Of a stretch of DNA of 64,000 nt, positions 3,779-52,357 are shown one piece after another. Source of the stretch: Minisyncoccota bacterium (GTDB lineage: Bacteria; Patescibacteriota; Minisyncoccia; Phycocordibacterales; PALSA-1337); contig JAQTPC010000004.1 in NCBI GenBank assembly GCA_028713005.1, positions 2,745-66,744 of the forward strand, given 5' to 3'. Position numbers and translations under genes: made by a program. Below the pieces are notes generated by a model that was not told the DNA's origin, did not search any database, and saw nothing but the letters and a program-made list of their open reading frames with translations. Every line of letters begins with the position of its first letter. Positions within the stretch are counted from its first letter, which is position 1.

Positions 3779-3787
3779 TTTTCTTTT

Positions 3788-4096
3788 TTACTGGGCAGGT
3801 GTGTGTGGATGATCGCCGTGATGAGTATGGCTCGTGCGCTTTTTGTGCCACTCTTTCACAAAGAAAACGATATATACTGCTTCGAGTAGACCCATCGTAT
3901 TCAAAAGAAGTATAGCGATGAACCACCACTTTTGATCGCGCTTTGCTGCTGTCCACAATGCATAACCCTTGAGAGCAATCAAAGCCATAAAAGCTACAGC
4001 GAGCAGTAAACTAAAAAATAGTGCTGGACCTTGTCCAAAGCCGTAAAACCACGGTGCACCCCACATATGACCATACGAAATTGATGAATTCATCAT
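3788..4096 (-). CDS. Small membrane protein (2-3 TM), His-rich C-terminus
   Basis: ORF with hydrophobic segments (FFSLLLAVAFMALIAL, WWFIAILLLNTMGLL). No recognisable family. Confidence 0.4.
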   Translation of the reverse strand: MMNSSISYGHMWGAPWFYGFGQGPALFFSLLLAVAFMALIALKGYALWTAAKRDQKWWFIAILLLNTMGLLEAVYIVFFVKEWHKKRTSHTHHGDHPHTPAQ

Positions 4097-4197
4097 AAAT
4101 ATAGAGATTAGCTAATATGCCTCTATTCTAGCATAGTTAAATGAGCAATAATCTGTTGTATAATAGTACGTATTAGCACCTAATTACATTCAAAATT

Positions 4198-4617
4198 ATG
4201 TTACCTATTAACTATGTAGCAGTCCTCGTCGCAGCAATTGTGGCCTTTATCATTGGTTTTCTCATGCATGGACCGGTTGCTGGCAAACTCTGGATGAAGC
4301 TTGCAAACATTCATCCTACGGGAAATGAAAAGTTCAAAGACATGATCCCTCAGATGCTCTGGAACTTGCTTGCAAACATTGTCACCGCATACGTTTTGGC
4401 AGTCGTCTATTTATTTGCATCTACCTCCCCTGTCATGGGTGGAGCGGGCGCTTGGAACGGTGTTGTCTGTGCATTCTGGGTATGGATCGGTTTTCTCGTT
4501 ACCAGTAGTTCTATCGAGGTCATCTGGATGGGACGTAGTGTCAAACTCTGGCTCTTTGAATGTGTCAGCTCACTCCTTGTCATGAGTGCTATGGGAGCAA
4601 TCATTGCAGCCTGGTAA
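4198..4617 (+). CDS. DUF1761-like integral membrane protein
   Basis: MLPINYVAVLVAAIVAFIIGFLMHGPVAGKLWM N-terminus resembles the DUF1761 family. Four predicted TM segments. Confidence 0.5.
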   Translation: MLPINYVAVLVAAIVAFIIGFLMHGPVAGKLWMKLANIHPTGNEKFKDMIPQMLWNLLANIVTAYVLAVVYLFASTSPVMGGAGAWNGVVCAFWVWIGFLVTSSSIEVIWMGRSVKLWLFECVSSLLVMSAMGAIIAAW

Positions 4618-4627
4618 TAGGTCGAAA

Positions 4628-5239
4628 TTATAGAGATTTAATACCAACACCTTTGTACATAAATCCCAAGGGCTTTGGACCTTGAGAGAATTTTTCTAGA
4701 TTCTGTATTTTAAAACCAGCATCACGGATAAGATGCTCAATATCTCTATTCAGATGACATCCGCCTGCGATACATTTTGAAATTGGAGTAAGTAAGTTTT
4801 GTATTCTCCAAATGAAAGTCTTTGGTGATTTTCCATGCTCAATGAAACAGAATTTTCCCCCAGGCTTCAGAACCCGGAACACTTCCTTAAGTGCGAGATC
4901 TGGGTGAGGAATAGTACACAATGTCCATGTTGAGACAACAAAATCAAGACTATTCTCAGGTAACGGAATATGTTCTGCTGAACCCAGAATCTGTTCTATA
5001 GGAAATGTAACAGCCTGAAGATTTTTATGTGCCATTTCATATAACTCTTTTGATGGATCAAGACCGTATAGTCTGGTGATACTTTTATAGTAAGGTAGAT
5101 TGAGCCCCGATCCAAAACCTATTTCAAGCCCAATACCAGACAACCCAGAAACAACATCGATTCTGTGTCGTTTAAAATCCTTACTCTGCATGACACAGTT
5201 AAGGTATATGGGTAAGATATATTTCTGATAAAGACTCAT
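4628..5239 (-). CDS. Class I SAM-dependent methyltransferase
   Basis: SAM-binding motif I GLEIGFGSG, motif post-I GLDPS, and LKPGGKFCFIEHG (Methyltransf_11-like). Confidence 0.75.
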   Translation of the reverse strand: MSLYQKYILPIYLNCVMQSKDFKRHRIDVVSGLSGIGLEIGFGSGLNLPYYKSITRLYGLDPSKELYEMAHKNLQAVTFPIEQILGSAEHIPLPENSLDFVVSTWTLCTIPHPDLALKEVFRVLKPGGKFCFIEHGKSPKTFIWRIQNLLTPISKCIAGGCHLNRDIEHLIRDAGFKIQNLEKFSQGPKPLGFMYKGVGIKSL

Positions 5240-5278
5240 GTTTAAATATATAAATCGTCTCCTGGATGCAGTACCTAG

Positions 5279-5365
5279 CGGAGAGAGTGGGATTCGAACC
5301 CACGGTTCCCGTAAGGGAACGGCGGTTTAGTAAACCGCTGCCTTAAACCACTCAGCCATCTCTCC
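5279..5365 (-). tRNA. Type-II (long variable arm) Ser-like tRNA; anticodon loop UUACUAA gives apparent anticodon ACU
   Basis: Reverse complement folds as acceptor GGAGAGA/TCTCTCC, D-arm, anticodon stem GCGGT/ACCGC, 18-nt variable arm, T-arm GTGGG-TTCGAAT-CCCAC and discriminator G. It aligns with E. coli tRNA-Ser. A34 is unusual. Confidence 0.6.
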
Positions 5366-5464
5366 AATCCTTTTATGGATGAAAATAGGTTAACACGAAT
5401 ATATTCTTTTGCAAAAAAAGTTTATTTTGATAAAAGCGTATTTTTATGCCAGAATGGCACGATT

Positions 5465-5551
5465 GGAACCGTGGTGGAGTGGTCTAACATACCTCTTTGC
5501 TAAAGAGGCAGGCCTTAACGGGCCTCGAGGGTTCGAATCCCTCCGGTTCCG
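5465..5551 (+). tRNA. tRNA-Ser (anticodon GCU)
   Basis: Acceptor GGAACCG/CGGTTCC, anticodon stem CCTCT/AGAGG with loop TTGCTAA, long variable arm, T-arm GAGGG-TTCGAAT-CCCTC, discriminator G. Confidence 0.8.
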
Positions 5552-14512: not shown

Positions 14513-14635
14513 GTGTGGTTATAATGTTCATAGTTTTTTGATGTAAATGTATCTAACTCCAAAATATAAATTACCACATGGAATGGTTATAGTCAATAAA
14601 AGAAAACACCGACTAAAGCCGGCTTTTTTAATGTG

Positions 14636-14999
14636 TGGAGATGGGCGGAATTGAACCGCCGTGCAATCGAAGTTCGTCGAGCGACTCTACGGTGATAGAA
14701 TCCTTTGAAGTTTAATGACTATGCTAACAAAGAAAACAAAGCACATAGTCACGATCTCATTGTTTCAGGAGATAGAGTGAGAAGCTCTATCTACCCTACA
14801 TCCAAGTTATTACGCCTTGCTTACTGTTAGGATCCCAGTGAGTAGACGGCCTCGTTAGACGAGAGCGAATTGAAAGTCTTTGACTCCAAAAAATGGAGAA
14901 ACAATAGATTTTGCAATTGGGTTTTCCAGCGGATTTACGAGTCACTGGTGCTCGCACCGCACGAACGAAAACTGTCGATTGTCGATGCCTTGCATCCCC
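14636..14999 (-). ncRNA. ssrA: tmRNA (SsrA)
   Basis: 5' GGGGATGCAAGGCATCGACAATCGACAG and 3' ...GGCGG-TTCAATT-CCGCC-CATCTCC-A. The acceptor stem GGGGAUG/CAUCUCC carries the G3:U70 alanine identity pair. It lies adjacent to smpB. The candidate tag frame GCA AAA ... GCU CUC GUC UAA runs from RNA nt 86. Confidence 0.8.
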
Positions 15000-22625: not shown

Positions 22626-22861
22626 ATGTATTAAATTAATTAGCCACAGTATAGCAGATGAGCTTCATTTACCTAAATCATACTCATTGACTGAAAAACT
22701 ACCCGTAGTGTATGCTTACGGTACAACAAAATAGTTATTCAGAGTGTGGCGAGAGAACTAGCTCAATGACCCACCAGCAACTCTTCGAAAGAAGTAAGTG
22801 CTCAATCTAGCCCGAAAGGGAAAGATGCTATATCTCGTATTAAAACGATATAAGAATAGTA

Positions 22862-22892: not shown

Positions 22893-24134
22893 ATGGTTCG
22901 AAGCCATATTTATTATGTAACATATATAACTATGTCTACAAAAACAAAAGACTCTTTTGAAAACAAGAGTCGGTTCGGGTTCGGAACATTAGCAATCCAT
23001 GCTGGCGAAACACCAGATGCAGAAACAGGTGCAGTTGCTCCAGTTATCGTCAGATCGAAAACCTTTGCCCAAAAACGTTTTGGCAAGGAGAGCGAATATC
23101 AGTATTCACGTGGTAAAAATCCCACGCGCGACAAGCTCATAGAGAAATTAGAAGCGCTCGAAGGTGGTGGTACCGCAACTGTATTCGGTTCAGGATTGGC
23201 AGCTGAGGCGGCATTCTTTCTCACTCTCTCCCCTGGTGATCATGTCCTTCTTTGTCAGGAGGTATATGGAGGAACATTTAGATTACTCGATGGCTTTCTT
23301 TCCCGTTTTGGTATTACTTACGATTTCGCTGATTTTTCTGCAGAAGAATCTATTTGGAAGGGCATAAAGCCAAATACCAAGTACCTCTTCGTAGAAACGC
23401 CGACCAATCCCTCTCTCCATATCATCGACCTTGCGCTTGTTGCGAAAGTATCAAAGAAAGCCTGTATACCGTTCGTTGTTGATGCCACATTCTCTCCTCC
23501 GTGCACCACCAAAGCATTTGAGTACGGCGCTGAGACCGTCATCCATAGTCTGAGCAAATATATCGCTGGACATAATGACATACTCGGCGGTGCTGTTATA
23601 ACGAAAAATACGAAATTAGCTGAGCGCATAAATTTTCTTCATCGAACGCTCGGAGCAGTTCTCTCTCCTGATGAGTGCTATCGGGTACTCCAAGGAGTGA
23701 AGACACTTGAGCTTCGTTGGAAGAGAGTAAGTGAAACGGCATTGACTGTCGCCCAATTCCTCAAAAAACAGAAAGTGATCACAAAGGTTTTTTATCCCGG
23801 CCTACTTTCACATGCTCAACATTCAATAGCTAAAAAACAACATCAAAATGGCTTCGGTGGCGTAGTTTCTTTTGAGCTACGCGAGCATAGTTTCAAAAAA
23901 CTAAAGAAATTTGTCGACACAGTTCGCGCCCATAGCCCTATCATCTATGGCGAAAGCCTCGCTAGTCCAGAAACAATCCTCGCATATCCTCCACTCATGA
24001 GCCATAAGAGTCTACCGAAAAATGTACGCGAATCACTTGGCATCACTGATGGATTCTTTCGGCTATCGGTTGGCTTTGAGGATGTAAAAGATATCTTGGA
24101 GGGATTGAGGAAAGGGCTTGCTGTACTTAATTAA
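22893..24134 (+). CDS. Cys/Met-metabolism PLP-dependent enzyme (cystathionine gamma-synthase / beta-lyase / methionine gamma-lyase family)
   Basis: HAGE..., YSRGKNPTRDKLIE, and the PLP-lysine motif HSLSKYIAGHNDILGG. The start may instead be ATG 22932. Confidence 0.8.
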   Translation: MVRSHIYYVTYITMSTKTKDSFENKSRFGFGTLAIHAGETPDAETGAVAPVIVRSKTFAQKRFGKESEYQYSRGKNPTRDKLIEKLEALEGGGTATVFGSGLAAEAAFFLTLSPGDHVLLCQEVYGGTFRLLDGFLSRFGITYDFADFSAEESIWKGIKPNTKYLFVETPTNPSLHIIDLALVAKVSKKACIPFVVDATFSPPCTTKAFEYGAETVIHSLSKYIAGHNDILGGAVITKNTKLAERINFLHRTLGAVLSPDECYRVLQGVKTLELRWKRVSETALTVAQFLKKQKVITKVFYPGLLSHAQHSIAKKQHQNGFGGVVSFELREHSFKKLKKFVDTVRAHSPIIYGESLASPETILAYPPLMSHKSLPKNVRESLGITDGFFRLSVGFEDVKDILEGLRKGLAVLN

Positions 24135-28198: not shown

Positions 28199-28377
28199 GA
28201 TGATTTCTTTATGCCTGGGATAATACCTTCATTGGCGAATTCACGGAAACAAATACGGCAGAGGTCAAAATCACGCATATAACCGTGCTTACGACCACAA
28301 CGGAAACAACGACGAACAACACGCGAAGCAAACTTCGGTGTTCTCTTTGAGCGTGCAATGACTGCTTTGGTTGCCAT
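28192..28377 (-). CDS. rpsN: 30S ribosomal protein S14 (zinc-binding type Z)
   Basis: 61 aa, [23 protein letters not shown] (C4 zinc ribbon). Confidence 0.85.
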
Positions 28378-28504
28378 AATTTGTATTAGGTAAAATGAGT
28401 GAAATTTTGAAAATAAAATTTCGATTGGTTAGCTTAGCCATTAATTTAGGCGTTTGCTTCCAATCACTGCCTCAGAACGAGCTTTTATTGAGGTAGGTAT
28501 GATA

Positions 28505-28547
28505 CTAGCAGATGATAGGAAATGAGTCAAATAAAAACCACCCTGCT
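28505..28547 (-). terminator. Rho-independent terminator after the NlpC/P60 gene
   Basis: Minus strand reads CCACCCCACTCATAGAGCAGGGTGG followed by TTTTTATTT. Confidence 0.5.
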
Positions 28548-28943
28548 CTATGAGTGGGGTGGCTGAGATGCTAATGCGTATATTTCGAGGAAATCAATTT
28601 TAGAAGTAACTGTCACTTTACATCCAAAAAACCGTGAACAATGTATCAACTCATTTGGCGAAGCAATTATAGCCATATGTGTCCAAATGAGATTTGAGGT
28701 ATTTGCTCTCCTTTTGAAAAACACACTATGACCAACTGGCATGAGATTAAACTCTTCCGGCGAGAGATGAAAATCTGTAGGCGGATACCCGGCATCAGTA
28801 AAAGCGGGCATTTCGATACCAGCTTCACGATACACTTCAATAACGAAATGAACGCAATGGAATGTATGCCAATCAAAAGGTTTTCCAAGATAGTTATGTG
28901 CAATTGTAACGATAGAGTTCGACAATGATGGTGAAAGAATCAT
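28548..28943 (-). CDS. NlpC/P60-family (papain-like) peptidase/amidase, small standalone
   Basis: The catalytic Cys context FHCVHFVIEVY and His context THMAII...ELIHCS are consistent with the C40 Cys-His-His architecture. Confidence 0.5.
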   Translation of the reverse strand: MILSPSLSNSIVTIAHNYLGKPFDWHTFHCVHFVIEVYREAGIEMPAFTDAGYPPTDFHLSPEEFNLMPVGHSVFFKRRANTSNLIWTHMAIIASPNELIHCSRFFGCKVTVTSKIDFLEIYALASQPPHS

Positions 28944-29137
28944 ACTTTCCTTTCTCTTTGATTATTTAATGAACAAAAAACCTGCCGATTAAGGCAGGTT
29001 TAGTACTTACACGCGTAAATACCTACCTGCCCTTAATGAGAGAAGCATAAACAAAACCTGACCACGTCTGAATGTGTTTATTTATAAGCATAGGTAGAAA
29101 TTATCACACAAATTACATATTTGCCAGGATTATTACT

Positions 29138-30220
29138 TTAGATATTAGTACTATTTAACGATGACGACATTATCTTACATGAAGCTGTAGATCCATCGTC
29201 AAACGCAACACCATCTCCGCTCACGGCAGCACTGTCATAACAATAACTTGAGCCAGAAGAATTTAAAACTGCAGAGATAGCATACGTCTCTCCTTCCGCA
29301 TAACAGGTAACAACATTTTTATCTTTTAACTGAACAAATACTGAAGCAAATGATGCGTCCGCAAACATTCCTTGTGAACAGCTTCGAGTCTTTGAATATG
29401 TATTATTATCTCCATAATAAACTTCTGCTTGAGTTCTTAACTGACTAAGCACTGTTCTGACTTGAGCATCTTGTCCTTTTTGGCGAGCAGAACTCAGTGC
29501 AACAAGTACAACCGATGACATGATACCGAATATTGCAATCATTGGGAGAATGCAAGCGATGATAATACCTACGACTAGACCAGCAGTATGAGGTTTAGCT
29601 GGATCTTTATATATCACAACACTATGTGCGAACATATCATGCAATCCTTGTTTCTTTGCCGTAAATCCAGCAATAATAAAACCGATACAAAGAATAATTT
29701 GAGAAACAAACTTGCCAAGAGTTTCGCGTAACAAAACTTTACCGAATGAAAGTTTTTCAAAGCTATCTGACTTAACAGTAATACCAACCAGCATTTTTCC
29801 AAGGGTCGCGCCGGAATAATATGTCATCAAAGTGAAATATGTCCATGTCAGAAGCAATGAGACAACATAAGATAATGCCCCGGCAGTCTGTGTAGCAGAT
29901 CCTGGGTTTTTTATTAAAATCAATCCTAAAAGAAACTGCGTCATGGCAATCGGTATAGCAATAATCAAGCTATCAACCATGATCGCGACAAATCTAACCC
30001 AAAAACCAGCATATTTTACATTTACAGGAGGAGTTGGAACAGTACCTGTAGGTGCAACTGGATTGTGAGCTGGCTGATTGAGTTCGAGAGTTGCAAAAGC
30101 ATCATTTACATCGACAAGATTCCATCCACCAGCACTTACGAGATTTTGTTGTATAGACTCTTTTGTTAAACCTTGTGCTATCTGTTGTTTGACGTACTCA
30201 AGCAATTGCGTATTTGCCAT
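29138..30220 (-). CDS. Membrane protein: conserved N-terminal helical domain + RDD-family domain + C-terminal type IV pilin-like region
   Basis: The N-terminus is paralogous to the next gene. RDD core runs RFVAIMVDS...YYSGATLGKMLVGITV. The C-terminal hydrophobic helix is followed by SSARQKGQDAQVRTVLSQLRTQAEVYYGDNNTY (pilin-like) and a Cys pair. Confidence 0.5.
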   Translation of the reverse strand: MANTQLLEYVKQQIAQGLTKESIQQNLVSAGGWNLVDVNDAFATLELNQPAHNPVAPTGTVPTPPVNVKYAGFWVRFVAIMVDSLIIAIPIAMTQFLLGLILIKNPGSATQTAGALSYVVSLLLTWTYFTLMTYYSGATLGKMLVGITVKSDSFEKLSFGKVLLRETLGKFVSQIILCIGFIIAGFTAKKQGLHDMFAHSVVIYKDPAKPHTAGLVVGIIIACILPMIAIFGIMSSVVLVALSSARQKGQDAQVRTVLSQLRTQAEVYYGDNNTYSKTRSCSQGMFADASFASVFVQLKDKNVVTCYAEGETYAISAVLNSSGSSYCYDSAAVSGDGVAFDDGSTASCKIMSSSLNSTNI

Positions 30221-30264
30221 AAAAATATATTAAGACTTGTAATTAGTGCCCTGATAATAGCACA

Positions 30265-31467
30265 TTATTTAAATGTAAAACTTGAGACAATACTCTCAGC
30301 ATCCTTTATCAAACTTAAGCCTCTATCTAGACTTGATTTGAATACAACACTGTATAGTGTGCCTCCATGCACTGCACTATATTGTAATATAGCCTCTCTT
30401 GCCGACTGATCTGAACCTGTACTGCTAACTGTAAAGGCTATCACAACCGCCTTTTCACCACTCAATGTACTTGAACTTACTTTACCCAATACTGCACCTG
30501 CAAATTCTGATTTTATAATCGTATCTACATTTTCAGAAGTGATGATTTGGTCAACCGAATCGATCAGTCCGGATGTATCAGGTATAGGTGTTATAGCAAC
30601 ACACATGATATAGCCTGAAGCAGAACTCGAGGCTTGCACACCCTGTCCCCCATTTGAGGTTACACTTGGTTTCCAACCTCTAGGTAGAGTAAACGAGTAC
30701 AATGCATTATCAACAATGCTCGATTTAGATTTTAAAGGAGATACCTGGGTATTCACTACTGGCACTTGACTGGTCTTTTTTGTAAACCTATCAGTAACTG
30801 ATTGAACTAGGTTTGGTTGGAAAAAATAAACATATGCACCAGCGCCGACAAAAGCACATATAATAAACACGAAAATCAAAATAAGAATACCTGAACGACG
30901 TGGTGAAGATGATTGCTGCGGAACAACAAACGCTTTTGATGCCACAGTTTGTGGCATCGAAGAAAAGCTTGGTGGTGGAGTAAATGTTCGTGGTGGTGTT
31001 GGAATTGGACTTGTCTGATATTGTTGAGCAAATGTTGCAGGTGGTGGCTTGGGAAAGCTAGCAATCGGTTGACTTGTCTGAACAGGATTTGATGGATACT
31101 GTGATACGGATGATACTGGTGGTTTTGGTGTTGAGATAGGTGTAGGAGTAATCTTGATTTCAATAGGTGGTTTAGGTGCGATCGGAGGTGCAGTGAATTG
31201 TGGTTTTGGAGCTATAACTGGCGTTGATACGGGCACAGAAACTACTGGTATTACTGGGGCTGGAGTTGTGGGCACAAAAACTTTTGGACTTATTGTCGCT
31301 GTTGGCGTTTGACTAGTAACTACACTATGACCGAGTGCTATAAACGCCTCTTTGATATCAACTGCACTCCAACCACCTTCCGCAATAAGTTTTTGTTGTA
31401 CAGCTTCTGCACTCGAACCATGTGCCAGTTTATATGAAATGTAATCAAGTAATTGTTTATTTGTCAT
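30265..31467 (-). CDS. Single-pass membrane protein with same N-terminal domain, Pro-rich linker and extracellular C-terminal domain
   Basis: MTNKQLLDYISYKLAHGSSAEAVQQKLIAEGGWSAVDIKEAF is about 50% identical to the N-terminus of 29138..30220. It has a PT-rich spacer and a TM segment ILILIFVFIICAFVGAGAYVYFF. Confidence 0.45.
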   Translation of the reverse strand: MTNKQLLDYISYKLAHGSSAEAVQQKLIAEGGWSAVDIKEAFIALGHSVVTSQTPTATISPKVFVPTTPAPVIPVVSVPVSTPVIAPKPQFTAPPIAPKPPIEIKITPTPISTPKPPVSSVSQYPSNPVQTSQPIASFPKPPPATFAQQYQTSPIPTPPRTFTPPPSFSSMPQTVASKAFVVPQQSSSPRRSGILILIFVFIICAFVGAGAYVYFFQPNLVQSVTDRFTKKTSQVPVVNTQVSPLKSKSSIVDNALYSFTLPRGWKPSVTSNGGQGVQASSSASGYIMCVAITPIPDTSGLIDSVDQIITSENVDTIIKSEFAGAVLGKVSSSTLSGEKAVVIAFTVSSTGSDQSAREAILQYSAVHGGTLYSVVFKSSLDRGLSLIKDAESIVSSFTFK

Positions 31468-31533
31468 AGGAATATACTAAATATACACAAAGTATATCCT
31501 AGTACTGACACAATAACAGCTCCCACCTGTTGA

Positions 31534-33378
31534 TTACAGAAATAACCTCACCAACCTGATCTCCTCAAAGGTGAAACTACTGCCGAGGATATTTTTGACC
31601 GGCGAAAGTGCTCTACCACCCCCCTCTTGCATGCCCACTGCATGAAACGCCATAGAAATCTTTTTGAAACGTGTAACGGGGAGTGCATCACGAAGATGTG
31701 AAATATTCCATGTAGGATCTTCTCTTTTCTCATGTTCTATATGATTGAGGATAGTATCAAAAGATAGACCGCGCTCCGTTGCTACTTCACGGACAGATTT
31801 TCCCATGTCGATGAGGCTGCGAGTCACCTCTGCAGTAGGTATCTTTGGTTTTTTACCTTTTCTGGTTCGTTTAACCGCCTTTGCTCGATCTGCAAAATCT
31901 TCATCAGACTCACCGTCTTCTTTTGTCACCGGATCAGGGCCAAGGAATTTCTTTTGTCGAACATTGAGATCATCAGCTGATAACCCCATAAAATGGGCTT
32001 GGGCTTTTTTTGATTGTTCACGAAAGTGCTTATCGAATTCATATGCTTCCGGATGGATATGCAGGGCCATATCATTGAGTCCTGCCAAGGTAAGGCCGAG
32101 GAGCGACCGTACACGCGAGAGCGCTACATAACCCATACCCTTCTCAAAAGAACGTGACAGGTCGATATGTGCAGCGTCGAGAGACATGCCCTGACTCTTA
32201 TGGATGGTTATAGCCCATGCGAGGCGTAGAGGATACTGTTCAATCTCAGCCAACGTCCTATCTCCCTCATCGACACGCCAGCTTTCGAGTGGTACATCTA
32301 TCTCTCTACCATCAAGCGTTTTGACGACGATACTGTCATAGGTACATTCAGCGACAATGCCACGTGTGCCGTTGGCATATCCAACTTCCCAATTATTTTT
32401 TACAAACATGACTTGTGCGCCAACTTTAAGCCTGAGAACCTCAGGCGCCAAGCAAGATTTCTTTAAACCTTCAATGAGCTTTTTGTTCCCGTGTGAAATC
32501 ATCTTATACTCCAAGAATCCCCCAGGAACTGCATTGAGCTCGCGATCATTTTCGGCATCAACATCGCTATTGTGAGAATAGAGTCGTGTTGCTTTTATGT
32601 TTTCAGTTAAAATCGTAGGAATTTCAATAGGAATATCTGTTTCGCTTTTCTTTTTAACTTCATCTTCATCACCGATAAAGACCACGTCTTCTTCAGAACC
32701 CATGTGCTCATCAGTTAAAAACTCTATGCCATCATCCTCTTTTTTATTACGAGAAATAATACGGCCATTTAATAAGTCCATCATATCTGTTGAGAGCGAC
32801 TGGGCACGAATACCATTTAAAATTCCAACATACTCCTTGTCCAACTGACGATGTTGCTCTTCGAGATAACAGACAACAAAGTTAGCCTCCTTCCAAGCCT
32901 TTGAATGATACGCGAAATACGCATCAGGCTCGCCCCCACGAGATATTGGAGGCAATTGGAAAAAATCTCCACACACCACAACCTGTAAGCCTCCGAATGG
33001 CGCGTCTGACTTACGAATCTTCTTCACGATTTCATTTATGAGATCCAAACGAAAATGATGGAGCATGGATATCTCATCGATGATAAGAACTTTGGCCGCT
33101 TCTATCTTTGTCTTTACATAACTCTTTTCTGATATTTCCTCGAGATCTTGTTCTGAGAGAGTGTCGCGTACGCCGACACCAGACCATGAGTGGATCGTGA
33201 CGCCGCCCATATGGGTCGCTGCGATACCAGTAGAAGCTGTGATACCAACGGGTATTTCTCGTTCACGTAAGCACTGTAGATATTCTCGAAGAACATAGGT
33301 TTTGCCGCTGCCCGCTGGTCCGGTCAGAAAAACGTTCGCTCCTGTTTTGAGGATATTTAATGCTTCAGCTTGGGTCAT
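31534..33378 (-). CDS. Pif1/RecD-family 5'-3' DNA helicase with C-terminal HTH-like extension
   Basis: Walker A GPAGSGKTY, Walker B LIIDEISM, the GDFFQLPPI motif, and C-terminal ITIHKSQGMSLD...YVALSRV. Confidence 0.75.
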   Translation of the reverse strand: MTQAEALNILKTGANVFLTGPAGSGKTYVLREYLQCLREREIPVGITASTGIAATHMGGVTIHSWSGVGVRDTLSEQDLEEISEKSYVKTKIEAAKVLIIDEISMLHHFRLDLINEIVKKIRKSDAPFGGLQVVVCGDFFQLPPISRGGEPDAYFAYHSKAWKEANFVVCYLEEQHRQLDKEYVGILNGIRAQSLSTDMMDLLNGRIISRNKKEDDGIEFLTDEHMGSEEDVVFIGDEDEVKKKSETDIPIEIPTILTENIKATRLYSHNSDVDAENDRELNAVPGGFLEYKMISHGNKKLIEGLKKSCLAPEVLRLKVGAQVMFVKNNWEVGYANGTRGIVAECTYDSIVVKTLDGREIDVPLESWRVDEGDRTLAEIEQYPLRLAWAITIHKSQGMSLDAAHIDLSRSFEKGMGYVALSRVRSLLGLTLAGLNDMALHIHPEAYEFDKHFREQSKKAQAHFMGLSADDLNVRQKKFLGPDPVTKEDGESDEDFADRAKAVKRTRKGKKPKIPTAEVTRSLIDMGKSVREVATERGLSFDTILNHIEHEKREDPTWNISHLRDALPVTRFKKISMAFHAVGMQEGGGRALSPVKNILGSSFTFEEIRLVRLFL

Positions 33379-33437
33379 GGGTGCTAGTATATCACCTCAA
33401 ATAAAAAATCCCGACACAACCTGTGTCGGGAGCGATA

Positions 33438-34607
33438 CTAGCAATTCTTCCAAAGCGAGCTCAGGCTCGGATTGCGTGCCAACGAATAATTTGAATAATC
33501 GAGATCATCCGTCACATCTCGCGATTTTCCGAGAAAATCCGGAAGCGAGACTTGGTCGTTCGCATCCGTCAGCTCGATCTCGAGCATAACCAACCCTTGA
33601 TGTAGGCCTAAGAATACATCCAGCTCAAAATACTGATCTTTGTAAACAAAGGTTTTACGAGTCTTTGTGACAGGACAGCAGTCGGGCTTGGCGAATCTCA
33701 GCAACCGAGTGAACTCTGAAGCAGTAATGATGCTTTCAGTTTCATAACGCCCGAAACTACCAGAAAATCCTGGCAGCGTCTTTTTGATCGTCCGATAGCA
33801 CGTCGTTATCCCGCGCCAGGTGCGCATGCGGATTCGTTCATCCCCTTCTGGAGTCTTGATGTAATACTGAACGATTGAGACGTTCTCGTGAGGAACCGAA
33901 ATCAGAGGCTCATTTTTAAGATGGAACTTCCGTTCAATCTCAATCGGCACTGGGATACCGAGAATATGAGTGATCGCTGCAACAGACTTCCGCACCTTAG
34001 TCTGCAGGTCGATGAAACCACCGTTACCATCTGTATTACTGATAACGACGAGATGAGGATGATGGATCCACGAACGTAACGTCCTTTCATCAAGCTCTTT
34101 CGCTTCCTCGACTGTTTCTCGGCGAGCAATGTTATTGGCGCATGTGTAAAGATGTGGCGCATCATATGCCAAACTGCGCAGATAGATGACGCCCTTATAC
34201 GGAACTTCCCCAAGCAAAGCGGCATCATAGCCCAACTTTTCGGCCATTTTAAAGAATACATCGGGTGAGATATAAGCCGAACCATCGAGACGACCTCGAT
34301 CGGTCAATATAACCTTGTGTTTTGCCTTGATACACTTCATCGCTTGGTGGTAGCGATATTCGCGTTCGACGGAAGCGAGAAGTATCTGCGTTTGGAAATC
34401 TTCTGGTGAACCGAAATCACCGAAAGAAAGCCCGTGAGTCGCAAATTCAGTTGCGATCTCAGGAACAACACAGGCATGAACCCCTTTGTCTTGAAGATGA
34501 CGGGTAGACTGCGCTAAGACGGTTGATTTTCCAGCACAAGCGCCACCTGTTTCAGCAATTGTCGTAATGTCACTTAATGCTAATGGATGAACGATTTGGT
34601 TGAGCAT
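33438..34607 (-). CDS. Fusion protein: AAA_28/NadR-like P-loop nucleotide kinase domain + CYTH (triphosphate tunnel metalloenzyme) domain
   Basis: N-terminal P-loop ETGGACAGKST, with a C-terminal domain opening on the CYTH hallmark EIERKF (ExExK). Confidence 0.55.
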   Translation of the reverse strand: MLNQIVHPLALSDITTIAETGGACAGKSTVLAQSTRHLQDKGVHACVVPEIATEFATHGLSFGDFGSPEDFQTQILLASVEREYRYHQAMKCIKAKHKVILTDRGRLDGSAYISPDVFFKMAEKLGYDAALLGEVPYKGVIYLRSLAYDAPHLYTCANNIARRETVEEAKELDERTLRSWIHHPHLVVISNTDGNGGFIDLQTKVRKSVAAITHILGIPVPIEIERKFHLKNEPLISVPHENVSIVQYYIKTPEGDERIRMRTWRGITTCYRTIKKTLPGFSGSFGRYETESIITASEFTRLLRFAKPDCCPVTKTRKTFVYKDQYFELDVFLGLHQGLVMLEIELTDANDQVSLPDFLGKSRDVTDDLDYSNYSLARNPSLSSLWKNC

Positions 34608-34705
34608 ACTACGATCCTTTCGTTGTGAGGGTTTATTTCAAAAAACTAAGACTGATCTGAGACTACTACAGCAGTACGTACCTGTAAACCCTGAACTTGA
34701 GAAAC

Positions 34706-34735
34706 AAAAAAACCACTCAAGGTGGTTTTTTCTTA
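34706..34735. terminator. Terminator after rplE
   Basis: AAAAAACCAC-TCAAG-GTGGTTTTTT. Confidence 0.5.
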
Positions 34736-34750
34736 CTTAAAAAAGTGAAA

Positions 34751-35323
34751 CTATTTCTTTCCTTTCTTGTCATCCTCCTTCTTGAGTGGGAGACCGAGGT
34801 ATTCGAGGAAACCGAGAGTCTGTGCTCTGTCACTTGAAGTTGTGACGAGAGTGATAGCAAGACCGAAAACATCCTTGAGGTCTTCATCTGATGTTTCTGG
34901 GAAGATAGTGTGCTCCTTGATACCGATCGTATAGTTGCCCATAGCGTCAACAGAGTTGCGTGAGAGACCGCGGAAGTCCTTTGTACGAGGGAGAGCGATG
35001 TTGATCAAACGATCCATGAAATCAAACATGCGTGGACCACGGAGAGTAATCTGATAACCGAGCGGATCGCCAACACGAGTCTTGAAAGTAGCGATGGCTT
35101 TCTTTGCGGCACGGGGAGCTGGCTTTTGACCAGTAATGCGTGCGAGACGCTCTGCAATGATCTCGATCTTTTTCTTATCCTTCACAGAACCGAAACTACT
35201 ACTGACAACCACCTTCTTGAGCTGTGGAGCCTGCATAGCGTTTTTGATATTCAACGTATCTTTGAGAGCTTTGAATGATTCTTTGTTGAGTTCGAGAACT
35301 GTTTTTTTGTGAGTAGTAGTCAT
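34751..35323 (-). CDS. rplE: 50S ribosomal protein L5
   Basis: L5 consensus throughout (PRMFDFMDRLINIALPR...). Confidence 0.9.
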   Translation of the reverse strand: MTTTHKKTVLELNKESFKALKDTLNIKNAMQAPQLKKVVVSSSFGSVKDKKKIEIIAERLARITGQKPAPRAAKKAIATFKTRVGDPLGYQITLRGPRMFDFMDRLINIALPRTKDFRGLSRNSVDAMGNYTIGIKEHTIFPETSDEDLKDVFGLAITLVTTSSDRAQTLGFLEYLGLPLKKEDDKKGKK

Positions 35324-37999: not shown

Positions 38000-38347
38000 T
38001 TATTTCTTTGTAGCAGTAGTAGCGGCTTCCTTTGCTGATTTTGCAGCTGAAACTTCTGCTTCCTTTGCCTTGAGCTCAATCTCCTTTTGCATCTTACCAC
38101 CGTGACGTACGAACTTGCGTGTAGGTGAGAATTCACCGAGGCGGTGTCCAACCATATCCTCGGTGACTAGAACTTCAATATGAGCACGACCGTTGTGTAC
38201 GCCAAAAGTAAAACCGAGCATCTCAGGAGAGATCTGACTGCGACGTGACCATGTCTTGATAACGCCAGTAGTAGCAGGCTTTTTGCCAGCTATTTTCTTG
38301 AGGAGTCTTTCCTCGACATATGGACCTTTCTTGAGTGATCGTGCCAT
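38000..38347 (-). CDS. rpsS: 30S ribosomal protein S19 with Ala/Lys-rich C-terminal extension
   Basis: [19 protein letters not shown]...[27 protein letters not shown]. The start is taken at the internal Met of the longer ORF. Confidence 0.85.
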
Positions 38348-38548
38348 GGAATAAGTAAATGTAGAATTAAAAAAGCTCAAATGAGCGTGAGAGGTATAGT
38401 AGCAGAGCCAGATTTCGAAGTCAAGCATTTAGGGCTTATTTTCATAAATATTAGAAAATGTGGCGGACTTTCGTAGAGCTTTAATAGAAGTAAGATAATA
38501 AAAAACCGGACTTCCCTGTGAAGGAGGTCCGGGTGTGCGAAATGAAGA

Positions 38549-38908
38549 TTAATCATTGTAACTGAATTTTCCAAAGCACAAACATTCAGATGTAAAACCA
38601 ATATTAATTTGATCAAATGATACTCCAGCAAACTGCTTTCGCACACCTTGCAAAAAGTGTTCGAAAACACAGCCTGGTTGTAGTGGGTCCACTGGATGAT
38701 TGTTCAGTGGCGGTATTTGCTCGTCTGTGAGTGGTGCATGATAATCGCAGGGCTCAAAATATAGATAGTAGTTTTCAATGCGCATAGTTAAGGCACAAAA
38801 GTGATTACCCTTGTAACTCCTTTGAGCGAACTCGACGATTTCAAAAACTGTAGGCCCTGAATCAAGACCTACATATATTAACATCGGAAATTCTTCATCT
38901 GCATTCAT
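38549..38908 (-). CDS. Hypothetical protein (119 aa) inserted between rplB and rpsS
   Basis: ORF with natural-looking composition and no family recognised. The L2 terminator precedes it. Confidence 0.4.
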   Translation of the reverse strand: MNADEEFPMLIYVGLDSGPTVFEIVEFAQRSYKGNHFCALTMRIENYYLYFEPCDYHAPLTDEQIPPLNNHPVDPLQPGCVFEHFLQGVRKQFAGVSFDQINIGFTSECLCFGKFSYND

Positions 38909-39002
38909 ATCGAAATCCTTTCTGTTAAGGTTCCTTGGTTTAAGTCACTGTAATCTGGTACCAATATTAAGTCAAACACTCAGTAAGTGATTTTTCGAAA
39001 GC

Positions 39003-39040
39003 AAAAAACACCCTTTCGGGTGCCTTTTGCTTTTACCTTA
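39003..39040 (-). terminator. Rho-independent terminator immediately downstream of rplB
   Basis: Minus strand reads GCAAAAGGCACCC-GAAA-GGGTG-TTTTTTGCTTT. Confidence 0.55.
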
Positions 39041-39160
39041 AATTGACTGGGTTTTAACCAAGAAATTCTTTGGTGATAACTATCATCGTAACCTTTTCCA
39101 TAACTGCCTTCGTTACTTTGACAAAAATCTTGTGTAATCCATGAGCTACGTTTCTCATAA

Positions 39161-40012
39161 TTAGAGCTTTGTACTCTTCTTACCAACCTGACGGCGAGAA
39201 ACAATAAAGACGTTTGAGTATTTCTTTGGTGTACGTGTCTTCTGACCCTTACCTGCTGGCTTACCCCAACGTGTCTTGAGACGGCGGAGACCACGACCCT
39301 GACGCTGTTCACCACCACCGTATGGATGATCCACTGGGTTCTGAGCAGTACCACGAACTGTTGGGCGGATACCCATCCAGCGTGAGCGACCTGCTTTACC
39401 AATGTTAACAAGGCGATTTTCTTCATTTGAAACAGCACCGATACTTGCCCATGCATCTTCGTGAATCTTGCGAACTTCTGTTGAAGGCATCTTGATGTGA
39501 GTATAACCTGCATCATTAGCGATAACCTGAGCAAATGAGCCTGCTGAACGAACGAGCTTTGATCCTGAGCCTGGCTTTACTTCGATATTGAAAACGAAAG
39601 CGCCGACAGGGATCTTTTTGAGCGGGAGACGGTTACCTGTTGTAACAGGAGCGTTTTGACTTACGATAAAAGAATTACCTACTTTCATTGTCTTTGGGAG
39701 GAGAACGTAACGTTTCTCACCATCCTTGTATGCAACAAGACCAATATAACCCGTACGGAATGGATCGTATTCAATGGTCTTCACAGTTGCATTGATGTCC
39801 TTTTTGTCATACATGAAATCAATCTCGCGATAGAGTTTCTTGTGACCGCCACCCTGGTGACGAACTGTAATGCGACCATGCGCATTGCGTCCTACGTCAC
39901 GCTTGAAACCGTGAGTAAGAGGCTTATATGGTTCACTGACTGTGAGGTACTCCTTGAATGGGAGAACAGTCATGTGTCGACGTGATTTTGAGGTTGGGCG
40001 GAATGATTTCAT
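39161..40012 (-). CDS. rplB: 50S ribosomal protein L2
   Basis: L2 consensus (GGGHKKLYR, VRGTAQNPVDHPYGGGE). Confidence 0.9.
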   Translation of the reverse strand: MKSFRPTSKSRRHMTVLPFKEYLTVSEPYKPLTHGFKRDVGRNAHGRITVRHQGGGHKKLYREIDFMYDKKDINATVKTIEYDPFRTGYIGLVAYKDGEKRYVLLPKTMKVGNSFIVSQNAPVTTGNRLPLKKIPVGAFVFNIEVKPGSGSKLVRSAGSFAQVIANDAGYTHIKMPSTEVRKIHEDAWASIGAVSNEENRLVNIGKAGRSRWMGIRPTVRGTAQNPVDHPYGGGEQRQGRGLRRLKTRWGKPAGKGQKTRTPKKYSNVFIVSRRQVGKKSTKL

Positions 40013-41740: not shown

Positions 41741-41747
41741 GTCAGTA

Positions 41748-41830
41748 TAATTAGTAATCGGTAAACAGTAATTAGTAATCAGAAAGAAGTCCAGCTTCTG
41801 TTTACTGATTACTATTCTCTGTTTACTTTT
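41748..41830. repeat. Cluster of GTAAACAG / TAATCAG direct and inverted repeats between rpsJ and rplC
   Basis: taatcggtaaacagtaattagtaatcag...ctgtttactgattact...ctgtttact; copies of the same motif occur at 20222-20270 and 24201-24230. Confidence 0.5.
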
Positions 41831-41834
41831 CAAG

Positions 41835-49991: not shown

Positions 49992-52157
49992 CTACTTCTT
50001 CTTCTCAATAATCTCAGTCTCAACGTTCTTTGGAACCACATCGTAGTGATCGAACTCCATCTGAGCACTTCCCTGACCTGAAGTCATAGAACGGAGATCA
50101 GTGGTATAACCGAACATTTCTGACAATGGAACCTTTGCGTGAATAGCGAGATTCATACCCTTTGGTTCTGAACCTTCGATGAGACCACGCTTTGATGAGA
50201 TAGAACCGATGACGTCACCCATGTATTTTTCTGGACAGACAACTTCGAGCTTCATGATAGGTTCGAGGATGACTGGCTTTGCGCGCTTACATGCAGCTTG
50301 GAAAGCGATAGATGCAGCGATCTTGTAGGCGATTTCTGATGAGTCGACATCGTGGTATGAACCATACGTCAATTCACATTCAATATTAACAAGTCTGAAT
50401 CCTGCGAGGATACCGCGATCCATAGCTTCATGAACACCCTTTTCAACAGCAGGAATGAACTCGCCAGGGATAGCGCCACCAGTGATAGAGTTGATGAAAC
50501 GGAAGTCATCGTAGTTACTAACGTTCTTTGGAACCTTCTCACCTTCTGGCCATGGCAACATCGGCTTGATGTTGAGTTTGACGTGACCATACTGACCTTT
50601 ACCACCAGTCTGTTTGACGTACTTCTCTTCAGCTTCAGCTTCACCGAGAATCGTTTCGCGATATGCCACTTGAGGCTTGCCAACATTTGCTTCGACGGTG
50701 AATTCACGCTTCATACGATCAACCATGATTTCAAGGTGGAGTTCTCCCATACCTGAGATGATTGTCTCACCTGTCTCTTGATTACTTGAGACACGGAATG
50801 TTGGATCTTCATTACCGAGCTTACGGAGAGCAAGACCCATTTTCTCTTGATCAGCCTTTGTCTTTGGTTCGATACGGAGAGAAATAACTGGTTCCATGAA
50901 TTTGATCTTTTCGAGGATGATAGGCTTTTCTTCATCACAGAACGTATGTGAAGTAAGTGCATCTTTGAGACCAACGGCTGCAGCGATCTCGCCTGCAAAA
51001 ACTTTCTTTACCTCTTCACGCTTGTCAGCTTGGAGGCGGACGATACGACCGAGGCGTTCTTTCTTGCCTGTTGTTGAGTTATAGATATATGTACCTGCTT
51101 CGATGGTACCTGAGTACACACGGAAGAATGTGAGCTGTCCGACGAATGGATCGTTCTGGAGTTTGAAAGCGAGAGCTGAGAAAGGTTCACTGTCATCAGC
51201 GTGACGTGCAATCTCTGCACCTGTGTTTGGGTCAATACCTTTGATCGCTGGCATATCGAGTGGTGATGGGAGATAGTCGACAACGGCGTCGAGTACGAGC
51301 TGAACACCAACGTTCTTGAGAGCTGAACCAGTAAACACTGGGAAGATCTTGTTTGCGATAACAGCCTTGCGACAAACTTTCTTGAAATCATCTATAGAGA
51401 TTTCTTTTCCGTCAAGGAAGTTCTGCATAGCAGCATCATCTGTTTCGACAACCTTTTCGATCATCTCTGCGCGATATTTCTTTGCATCTTCGAGCATATC
51501 AGCAGGAATTTCACTTTCGATGATATCGATACCCTTTTCACCTGAGAAGGTATACGCCTTCATACGGAGAAGGTCGACAACACCATGGTGATCTGCCTCT
51601 GTTCCAATAGGAAGCTGGAAACGGACGGCATTCTTATTCAAACGTTCAAGGATAGATTTGTATGACTTTTCGAATGATGCACCCATGCGATCCATCTTGT
51701 TGATGAAACAGAGACGTGGAACATTGGCTTCATCGGCGTAACGCCAATTTGTCTCTGACTGTGGCTCAACACCTGCCACACCGTCGAAGACCACAACCGC
51801 ACCGTCGAGCACGCGGAGAGAACGCTTCACTTCTACGGTGAAATCGATGTGTCCTGGTGTATCGATGATATTGAAACGAACTTTCTGTGAGACATCATCT
51901 TTTCCTGCAGCATCTTTGAGGCCACGTTGATATGTTGGGTTCCAGAAACACGTGATTGCAGCAGCAGTGATAGTGATACCACGTTCACGTTCCTGTTCCA
52001 TCCAGTCAGTAGTTGTTTCACCTGTGTGCACTTCACCGATCTTGTGGATCATACCGGTATAGTAAAGGATACGCTCTGATGTCGTAGTCTTACCAGCATC
52101 GATGTGGGCAATGATGCCGAAGTTTCGCATTCTCTCAAGTGGGTAATCGCGTTGCAT
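49992..52157 (-). CDS. fusA: Elongation factor G
   Basis: AHIDAGKTTTSERIL, DTPGHIDF, 721 aa. Confidence 0.95.
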   Translation of the reverse strand: MQRDYPLERMRNFGIIAHIDAGKTTTSERILYYTGMIHKIGEVHTGETTTDWMEQERERGITITAAAITCFWNPTYQRGLKDAAGKDDVSQKVRFNIIDTPGHIDFTVEVKRSLRVLDGAVVVFDGVAGVEPQSETNWRYADEANVPRLCFINKMDRMGASFEKSYKSILERLNKNAVRFQLPIGTEADHHGVVDLLRMKAYTFSGEKGIDIIESEIPADMLEDAKKYRAEMIEKVVETDDAAMQNFLDGKEISIDDFKKVCRKAVIANKIFPVFTGSALKNVGVQLVLDAVVDYLPSPLDMPAIKGIDPNTGAEIARHADDSEPFSALAFKLQNDPFVGQLTFFRVYSGTIEAGTYIYNSTTGKKERLGRIVRLQADKREEVKKVFAGEIAAAVGLKDALTSHTFCDEEKPIILEKIKFMEPVISLRIEPKTKADQEKMGLALRKLGNEDPTFRVSSNQETGETIISGMGELHLEIMVDRMKREFTVEANVGKPQVAYRETILGEAEAEEKYVKQTGGKGQYGHVKLNIKPMLPWPEGEKVPKNVSNYDDFRFINSITGGAIPGEFIPAVEKGVHEAMDRGILAGFRLVNIECELTYGSYHDVDSSEIAYKIAASIAFQAACKRAKPVILEPIMKLEVVCPEKYMGDVIGSISSKRGLIEGSEPKGMNLAIHAKVPLSEMFGYTTDLRSMTSGQGSAQMEFDHYDVVPKNVETEIIEKKK

Positions 52158-52357
52158 GTGTTTGTTTGATAATTGTCGGGCCGTTTATGATAAATGTGGC
52201 CTAAGAATTGATGATAAATTAAAAAAGCGAGTCGCCTTTAGTAAGGGATAATGTACAGGAAAAGGCTGAAATAATCAAATAGATGAGTGCCTGCAAATAA
52301 ACACCGTAATAGACCACCTCCTTCCCCGTCATTCTATATATGTAGTAAGATAATCAC

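Follow-up and report, generated by a model that had tools for sequence, protein, structure and literature searches.

The rplB-rpsS interval

We analyzed a 64,000-nt stretch of DNA from a Minisyncoccota bacterium (contig JAQTPC010000004.1, positions 2,745 to 66,744 of the forward strand; hereafter, the window), focusing on the interval between the ribosomal protein genes rplB and rpsS. The ribosomal cluster of the window lies on the minus strand in the order tuf, rpsJ, rplC, rplD, rplW, rplB, then rpsS, rplV, rpsC, rplP and onward. In E. coli and most bacteria, the canonical S10 operon runs rpsJ-rplC-rplD-rplW-rplB-rpsS-rplV-rpsC-rplP-rpmC-rpsQ behind an L4-controlled leader. The window has the same gene set and order, but instead of forming a contiguous, co-transcribed array, rplB and rpsS are parted by an 813-nt spacer, read on the minus strand, that holds two hairpin/U-tract elements and two promoter-like sites. 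Along the direction of transcription it comprises a short open reading frame (ORF) termed orf34, a terminator-like hairpin (T1), a promoter-like site, a 119-aa ORF (ORF119), a second terminator-like hairpin (T2), the rpsS promoter and a leader hairpin:

39161-40012, minus strand: rplB (uL2), a 283-aa ORF and the last ribosomal gene of the predicted upstream transcription unit; its homologues match Pfam Ribosomal_L2
39054-39158, minus strand: orf34, an unannotated, conserved 34-codon ORF starting 2 nt past the rplB stop
38992-39033, minus strand: T1, an intrinsic-terminator-like hairpin (39033-38998) with a U-rich tail; predicted end of the rpsJ...rplB-orf34 unit
38947-38975, minus strand: promoter-like site of ORF119, TTGACT-N17-TACAGT, ~67 nt before the ATG; a consensus match only
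38549-38908, minus strand: ORF119, 119 aa, from a small lineage-restricted protein family
38500-38532, minus strand: T2, a hairpin (38532-38506) and U6 tract after ORF119; part of the conserved right flank
38396-38424, minus strand: rpsS promoter, TTGACT-N17-TACTAT with an extended -10 TG; a consensus match
38369-38386, minus strand: rpsS leader hairpin, GCUC-AUUU-GAGC followed by U6, beginning 9 nt past the -10 hexamer
38000-38347, minus strand: rpsS (uS19), start ATG at 38347; first gene of the predicted downstream unit rpsS-rplV-rpsC-rplP...

An initial annotation of this region, made from the sequence alone, had reported a hairpin and U-tract immediately downstream of rplB at 39003-39040. 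The hairpin is real and was placed essentially correctly, but it begins 125 nt downstream of the rplB stop, with orf34 intervening. T1 has a 16-bp stem with arms AAAAGCAAAAGGCACCC and GGGUGUUUUUUGCUUU and the loop GAAA. It was also detected as an inverted repeat, and it folds with a minimum free energy of -24.4 kcal/mol (z = -4.5), which none of 200 shuffled sequences equaled. T2 is weaker (-15.9 kcal/mol, z = -3.5). Both have the GC-rich stem-loop followed by a U-tract, on the transcribed strand, that defines an intrinsic terminator in sequence, and both promoter-like sites have hexamers resembling TTGACA and TATAAT at the spacing of 16-18 nt expected for sigma-70. ORF119 itself, present where the initial annotation had drawn it, is preceded by a Shine-Dalgarno-like GAAAGGA 7 nt upstream of its start. 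The break between rplB and rpsS is thus physical and, as judged by sequence signals, transcriptional.

The spacer has no flanking direct or inverted repeats. Rfam returned no match within it at the gathering threshold and nothing relevant at E up to 1 across 38300-39250. A perfect 11-nt inverted repeat (38532-38542 and 38637-38647), in which sequence 3' of the ORF119 stop pairs with codons of the conserved GVRK motif, was rejected as a mark of a mobile element: it lies at roughly chance level (~0.1 expected) and is not present in the related contig L084 (related loci are numbered L001 onward, proteins from homology searches P0002 onward). A 142-aa version of the rpsS ORF starting at 38428 was likewise rejected as an over-extension, since it runs across the rpsS promoter and the conserved Met lies at 38347. 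The public gene call on L084 (4203-4631) similarly extends rpsS by 27 upstream codons, across its own promoter.

The boundary in related genomes

The initial annotation proposed comparing the rplB-rpsS region across relatives. For this comparison, 80 species representatives were taken by their L2 region, with L2 62-98% identical to the window's rplB product and, where compared, S19 66-99% identical to its rpsS product. Their labels are Paceibacterota, Taylorbacteria, Kaiserbacteria, Nomurabacteria, Parcubacteria and similar. Near-universal contiguity of the L2 and S19 genes, which the initial annotation took as its background, is established for bacteria generally but does not hold in this class: the rplB-rpsS gap is anywhere between 46 and 3750 bp long (median 828 bp, n=56; 15 loci at 200 bp or less, 17 at 200-1000 bp and 24 above 1 kb), and in 13 further loci no rpsS lies within 4 kb of rplB. 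Gaps above 300 bp occur at this junction in 38 of 56 loci, versus 0-1 at five other S10 junctions, whose medians are 14-27 bp (the crude estimate for rplD-rplW being negative). The rpsJ-rplC junction is a second, weaker variable site, with a median of ~70 bp and 11 of 54 gaps above 300 bp, up to 1.7 kb; in the window it lies at about 41741-41834.

The signals that flank the gap recur along with it. Of 78 loci, 51 have a hairpin followed by a T-tract in the first 150 nt past rplB, versus 3/75 and 3/75 in two control windows. The 200 nt ahead of rpsS contain the pattern TTGAC[T/A]-N16-18-TAnnnT in 46/56 species, versus 0/75 before rplB and 0/53 before rplV. Among close relatives (L001, L081-84, L090-91 and L096) the 29-mer of the rpsS promoter is identical. 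The position of T1 is kept in L001, L081, L084 and L090 with stem sequences that differ and remain complementary, and T2 is common to the window and L001, which carry different cargo, with DNA homology resuming at 38537. Even loci with gaps as short as 46-163 bp have both the terminator-like and the promoter signal, which indicates that the boundary predates the cargo. The comparison therefore does not bear out the initial annotation's view of an independent insertion in this window; on the sequence evidence, ORF119 occupies a pre-existing inter-operon slot. We found no description of an rplB-rpsS break in the searchable literature.

Variable contents of the slot

The cargo between rplB and rpsS differs in nearly every related locus. 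It includes a histidine kinase, DUF3298, diacylglycerol kinase, PemK/MazF, an aminotransferase with an Orn/DAP decarboxylase, an amino-acid kinase and many unknowns, and 97 of the 131 gap ORFs of at least 90 aa are singletons, with no relative in any other gap. The nearest species, L001, carries the aminotransferase and Orn/DAP decarboxylase pair, and a PemK/MazF toxin occupies the slot of L049, L052 and L054. Different accessory genes are thus found between the same flanking core genes, and this variability is focused on the rplB-rpsS interval relative to the neighboring ones. No integrase was found in the interval.

In six close relatives (L003-L008), the slot holds a HisKA/HATPase_c histidine kinase on the opposite strand, beside rpsS (for example L003 2676-3518, minus strand).

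On either side of the cargo the DNA is well conserved: window and relatives are 85-92% similar over the rplD-rplB-orf34 segment, and the similarity returns to this level at T2 or the promoter and extends over rpsS-rpsC. The transitions are sharp, at 39115 and 38537 for the window versus L001, and at 39054 and 38510 for the window versus L084.

The ORF119 family

Public records list ORF119 as PHG25_01910, a hypothetical protein in a metagenome-assembled genome of Candidatus Pacebacteria. The initial annotation described it as an orphan, and a word-indexed homologue search indeed returned only the sequence itself; taken alone, that search would wrongly suggest an ORFan. An exhaustive phmmer search of 1.84 billion representatives was needed, and it found ten small proteins (104-131 aa, 30-53% identity, E 1e-8 to 5.6e-21), after four long repeat proteins in the list (P0002, P0005, P0013 and P0014) had been discarded as composition or repeat artefacts. 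Profile and metagenome searches bring the family to ~20 members, all from Paceibacteria-type genomes of the candidate phyla radiation (CPR); two further profile searches yielded few or no extra members. No viral or phage relatives of the family were found, and neither ORF119 nor orf34 matched anything in scans of Pfam, PHROGs, NCBIfam and PADLOC.

In the family alignment, H84 and R90 are invariant and Q29, F37, C54, Y56, E83, F85, L86, Q87 and F98 are conserved in at least 90% of members, within the motifs FAQ..YKG.HFCAL, F.PC.Y, (V)FEHFLQSVR and G.SF. The N-terminus, the linker at 57-79 and the C-terminus are variable, and two allele classes can be told apart by the presence or absence of an LLxNN insertion before S97. 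The initial annotation had remarked on multiple Cys and His residues. ORF119 does have five Cys (38, 54, 80, 109, 111) and four His (36, 57, 71, 84), of which the family keeps only H84 and, nearly always, C54, which makes a structural metal site unlikely. Charge is not conserved either, the isoelectric point (pI) ranging from 4.5 to 9.7, with a net charge of -10 in the window copy. The ratio of nonsynonymous to synonymous substitution (dN/dS) is uninformative for the family, with synonymous sites saturated.

AlphaFold models built from the family alignment for ORF119 (predicted local distance difference test score 84.3, predicted template modeling score 0.78) and for the distant member P0012 (83.8 and 0.75) agree on a beta-alpha-beta-beta, linker, beta-alpha(-beta-beta) arrangement, and Foldseek searches with the two models gave no match to known folds. 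A duplication relating the N- and C-terminal halves of ORF119 is weakly supported (hhalign E = 0.024). In the model, E83, H84, Q87 and R90 share one face of helix 2, which suggests that this face, together with Y56, C54 and Q29, could form one conserved site, for binding or catalysis, while the rest of the surface diversifies.

Every member at least 37% identical to ORF119 whose context could be read lies directly 3' of rplB and in the same orientation. The set comprises P0017, P0019, P0010 and P0018 together with the metagenome loci L092, L093, L094 and L096, and the arrangement of P0017 is seen in three independent assemblies (JGI, ENA and Logan). The family gene is the sole gene before rpsS in L084 and L081-83, as in the window, and in L085 it comes second, after a different ORF of 126 aa. 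Unrelated genes occupying 1-3 kb separate it from rpsS in L090/91, L094 and L096; they include a 709-aa protein, a membrane histidine kinase with an amino-acid kinase, and two 141-aa ORFs. In 7/9 rplB-linked loci where enough sequence precedes the family gene, its start is 62-92 nt downstream of a promoter-like site, and no partner gene is conserved across the loci compared. The kinase that follows the ORF119 homologue in L094, at 3787-5520, is longer than those in the slots of L003-L008.

The family is patchy even among close hosts. Searches by tblastn or with a hidden Markov model found no ORF119 relative in the 80 species-representative loci. L001, the closest of these (rplB 98%), L002-L008 and L014 all lack the family gene, with L2 87-98% identical, and roughly half of the genomes in the clade with an L2 identity of 87% or more have the gene.

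Probable exchange of alleles

Where L2 is 88-98% and S19 88-99% identical, the family proteins are only 31-52% identical, and their divergence does not follow that of their hosts: the Mantel correlation between family and rplB distances is r = -0.28, versus r = 0.73 for an rplW control. In L090 and L096, for example, L2 is 98.6% identical and the family protein 33.9%; in L093 and L094, L2 is 78% identical and the family protein 59.5%. When the window is compared with L084, the AAA_28-CYTH gene, which is ordinary and non-ribosomal, shows 87.5% protein identity and 52.9% identity at third codon positions; for ORF119 the two values are 42% and 32.5%, the latter close to random. That ORF119 alleles fail to track host phylogeny suggests exchange of the cassette. 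The most likely explanation, which we infer from this incongruence and the sharp homology breaks in what is a small sample, is that ORF119 alleles (and, in L001, the whole cargo) have been replaced via homologous recombination in the conserved ribosomal flanks.

The family gene might instead have been inherited vertically at this site and changed rapidly where it stands, through relaxed or diversifying selection and with no exchange of alleles. Its constant position, the partial similarity of promoter and 5' untranslated region between the window and L084, and the general near-saturation of synonymous sites among these genomes would all fit. Nevertheless, we consider this improbable: family distance does not rise with host distance as it does for rplW, the closest hosts hold some of the most different alleles, third positions of ORF119 are far less alike than those of the ordinary gene in the same pair of genomes, and the homology boundaries are sharp, with two allele classes distinguished by the LLxNN insertion.

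Alternatively, its position could reflect function, with ORF119 being a lineage-specific ribosome-associated or operon-regulatory protein, for instance an accessory protein new to the ribosome or one that autoregulates the rpsS unit. The shared position and orientation of the closer members within the ribosomal cluster could be read in this way, and several proteins are known to be missing from CPR ribosomes or altered in them (PMC9297842). A protein with such a role is hard to reconcile with a gene missing from L001, L002-L008 and L014 despite their highly similar L2, with a sequence and charge far less conserved than L2 and S19, with a predicted promoter of its own and predicted terminators on either side, and with distant members that lie outside ribosomal clusters. 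A role of this kind, and a core ribosomal function of ORF119 more generally, therefore seem to us unlikely.

We think it very unlikely that the cassette is a remnant of a mobile or selfish element aimed at the rplB/rpsS sequence, such as a homing endonuclease, an insertion sequence fragment or a toxin-antitoxin system. Free-standing homing endonucleases do typically insert between two highly conserved genes, and MazF/PemK toxins occupy the same slot in three relatives. However, 15 family members searched against family libraries at E up to 10 gave nothing consistent, and no nuclease, transposase, integrase or toxin-antitoxin family; in particular, no member has a Pfam match to LAGLIDADG, GIY-YIG, HNH or His-Cys box endonucleases. 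The interval also has no flanking repeats and the family no viral or phage relatives, and ORF119 stands alone between T1 and T2, with no partner and with neighbors that differ in every locus, unlike a type II toxin-antitoxin pair.

Finally, the initial annotation had allowed that the ORF might prove to lack conservation or coding signal and so be mere expanded spacer; despite the absence of any Pfam, NCBIfam, PHROGs or PADLOC match and a word-indexed search that found only itself, this is hardly tenable given ~20 homologues whose protein conservation persists past DNA alignability, conserved motifs, confident structure models, a Shine-Dalgarno-like sequence and a promoter-like site. ORF119 is a genuine protein-coding, but accessory, gene.

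orf34 and the rpsS leader hairpin

The product of orf34 begins MRNVAHGLHKIFVKV (full sequence MRNVAHGLHKIFVKVTKAVMEKVTMIVITKEFLG) and is basic and hydrophobic, with a pI of 10-11.7 across relatives (~10 for the window copy). It is not called in any protein collection. It is retained as an ORF in all nine distinct genomes with L2 at least 93% identical (L001, L081-84, L090-92 and L096) and is always followed by T1, whose stems differ yet stay complementary. Its ratio of nonsynonymous to synonymous differences (pN/pS) is 0.14-0.40, with variable sites by codon position numbering 16/8/29 of 32. By these codon comparisons, orf34 carries signatures of purifying selection, and it may be a microprotein coupled to L2.

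At the predicted 5' end of the rpsS mRNA, a GC-rich hairpin with a U-tract begins 4-9 nt past the -10 hexamer in 44 of 50 distinct rpsS leaders, versus 1.0 +/- 1.0 in shuffled sequences. The stems take 25 different sequences, such as GCUC/GAGC, CCCGC/GCGGG, CGCGC/GCGCG and GACCC/GGGUU, and thus covary. RNAalifold on MAFFT-aligned leaders gave no pairs, because the hairpins were misaligned, and it was replaced by the direct census against shuffles given here. The hairpin matches no Rfam family and is unrelated to the canonical S10 leader. It may be a new ribosomal-protein leader element, which might serve in mRNA stabilization, attenuation or blocking of read-through.

Elsewhere in the window, upstream of fusA (EF-G, 49992-52157), the stretch 52217-52278 (minus strand) holds TTGATT-N17-TACATT and, 10 nt on, a hairpin with the sequence AAAGGCG-ACU-CGCUUUU and a U-rich tail. 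Of 23 promoter-like sites in the window, this is the sole other with such a leader hairpin.

A probable division of the S10 operon at a gene-turnover slot

Taken together, these observations make it probable that the S10 operon of this Paceibacteria-type CPR class consists of two transcription units, and that the slot between them is a hotspot for cargo. In this model, the first unit, rpsJ-rplC-rplD-rplW-rplB (in the window with coupled orf34), would end at the intrinsic terminator T1, and the second would start at a canonical sigma-70-type promoter, followed by the small leader hairpin and rpsS. The interval between terminator and promoter would then be an operon edge, so genes could land there without polar damage and its content could become species-specific. 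In the window, the slot would hold one self-contained cassette of promoter, Shine-Dalgarno sequence, ORF119 and terminator; ORF119 would be transcribed alone from its own promoter up to T2, which would shield the rpsS promoter against read-through. Homologous recombination in the strongly conserved ribosomal flanks would exchange alleles among lineages.

Several points weigh against this proposal. The terminators and promoters on which it depends are sequence predictions, and a consensus promoter scan of the window alone is not enriched (14 found versus 17.9 expected from shuffles), so that the argument is carried only by cross-species conservation. The 80 loci were picked by L2 similarity, which limits the claim to this class. 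In ordinary or weakly expressed genes, synonymous differences between these genomes already approach saturation (pS 0.55-0.86 for orf34); saturated dS in ORF119 alone is therefore no proof of replacement, and the case is carried by the incongruence and the third-position contrast. The composition of ORF119 gives no hint of foreign origin, its GC content of 0.389 lying at the 15th percentile of window segments. Only ~13 distinct family contexts were recovered, and the two most divergent members lie elsewhere, P0012 after MetRS-TatD and a 133-aa ORF and P0015 between FtsH and RecG. As for function, one family member has a match to an immunity-protein family that is not significant (E = 0.12).

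Our guess at the function of ORF119 is tentative: it could be a cytoplasmic protein that binds a partner, as immunity or anti-defence proteins do, with the polar face of helix 2 fixed and the rest diversifying. It is prompted by the conserved site, the patchy presence, the variable charge and the location in a turnover slot. Like known small hypervariable immunity and anti-defence proteins, members of the family are ~110 aa long and cytoplasmic, vary in surface and charge, are patchily present and sit in a variable slot; unlike them, ORF119 has no cognate toxin or defence gene nearby and no sequence or fold match, and the likeness is circumstantial. Our next guess, more doubtful still, is a small enzyme using the same conserved residues.

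A bolder form of the proposal, which we put forward only as a speculative possibility, is that Paceibacteria have turned the L2-S19 junction, one of the best-conserved gene pairings known, into an insulated landing pad. Made up of a terminator, the slot, a second terminator, a promoter and a 5'-terminal hairpin, it would be dedicated to accessory genes that species trade with one another through recombination in the nearly invariant ribosomal flanks. ORF119 would then represent a new hypervariable family involved in inter-microbial or phage conflict, with a fold absent from solved structures; orf34 would encode a novel basic microprotein coupled to L2, and the leader hairpin would be a novel element that regulates or stabilizes ribosomal-protein mRNA.

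New genes rarely integrate within operons, doing so rather at their edges, and many integration hotspots have no mobile elements and show recombination at the flanking core genes (PMC5635113; Oliveira, Touchon, Cury and Rocha, 2017). The slot described here fits this pattern: the same pair of core genes encloses different genes at an operon edge, with no recognizable mobile element and with signs of exchange through the flanks. It differs from those core-gene-flanked hotspots of horizontal transfer in lying inside a ribosomal operon that is elsewhere single and extremely conserved, in varying across species of a class rather than strains of one species, and in that recombination is deduced from incongruence rather than measured. 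Accessory genes are also known to gather at unit boundaries between the classical ribosomal operons, with the order within units kept; here, the boundary lies inside the S10 operon, so that a new operon edge appears to have been created in this lineage. The other S10 junctions of the class remain tight (medians 14-70 bp), as in the canonical operon, whereas rplB and rpsS are parted by a predicted terminator, from 46 bp to more than 4 kb of sequence, and a promoter.

The S10 array is a textbook example of operon conservation and a set of phylogenetic markers, and pipelines for binning and annotating CPR genomes assume its contiguity; it would seem that even this array can gain a new operon edge. 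Ultra-small genomes with no obvious mobile elements would still have a defined site of gene turnover, which makes it a good place to search for host-interaction and defence genes in uncultured organisms. Expression of ribosomal proteins would also have to be coordinated differently here, given the separate predicted promoter and conserved leader hairpin of the rpsS unit. In addition, the analysis brings to light ORF119 and orf34, two products that had been uncharacterized or unannotated.

Other features of the window

What is presumably a first break in the ribosomal cluster lies at 28200-34750 (minus strand), where ~6.4 kb separate rplE (34751-35323) from rpsN/rpsH (28377-27812). It encodes a helicase-like protein of 614 aa, two membrane or Pro-rich proteins, an ORF of 131 aa and an AAA_28+CYTH protein (33438-34607) whose gene has the same location in L084, and it ends with a hairpin and the promoter-like sequence TTGACT-N17-TAGTAT (28530-28502) ahead of rpsN. 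Two ordinary Rfam matches complete the picture: a SAM riboswitch at 22732-22830 (plus strand), directly upstream of a 413-aa ORF (22893-24134), and a tmRNA gene at 14633-14999 (minus strand).

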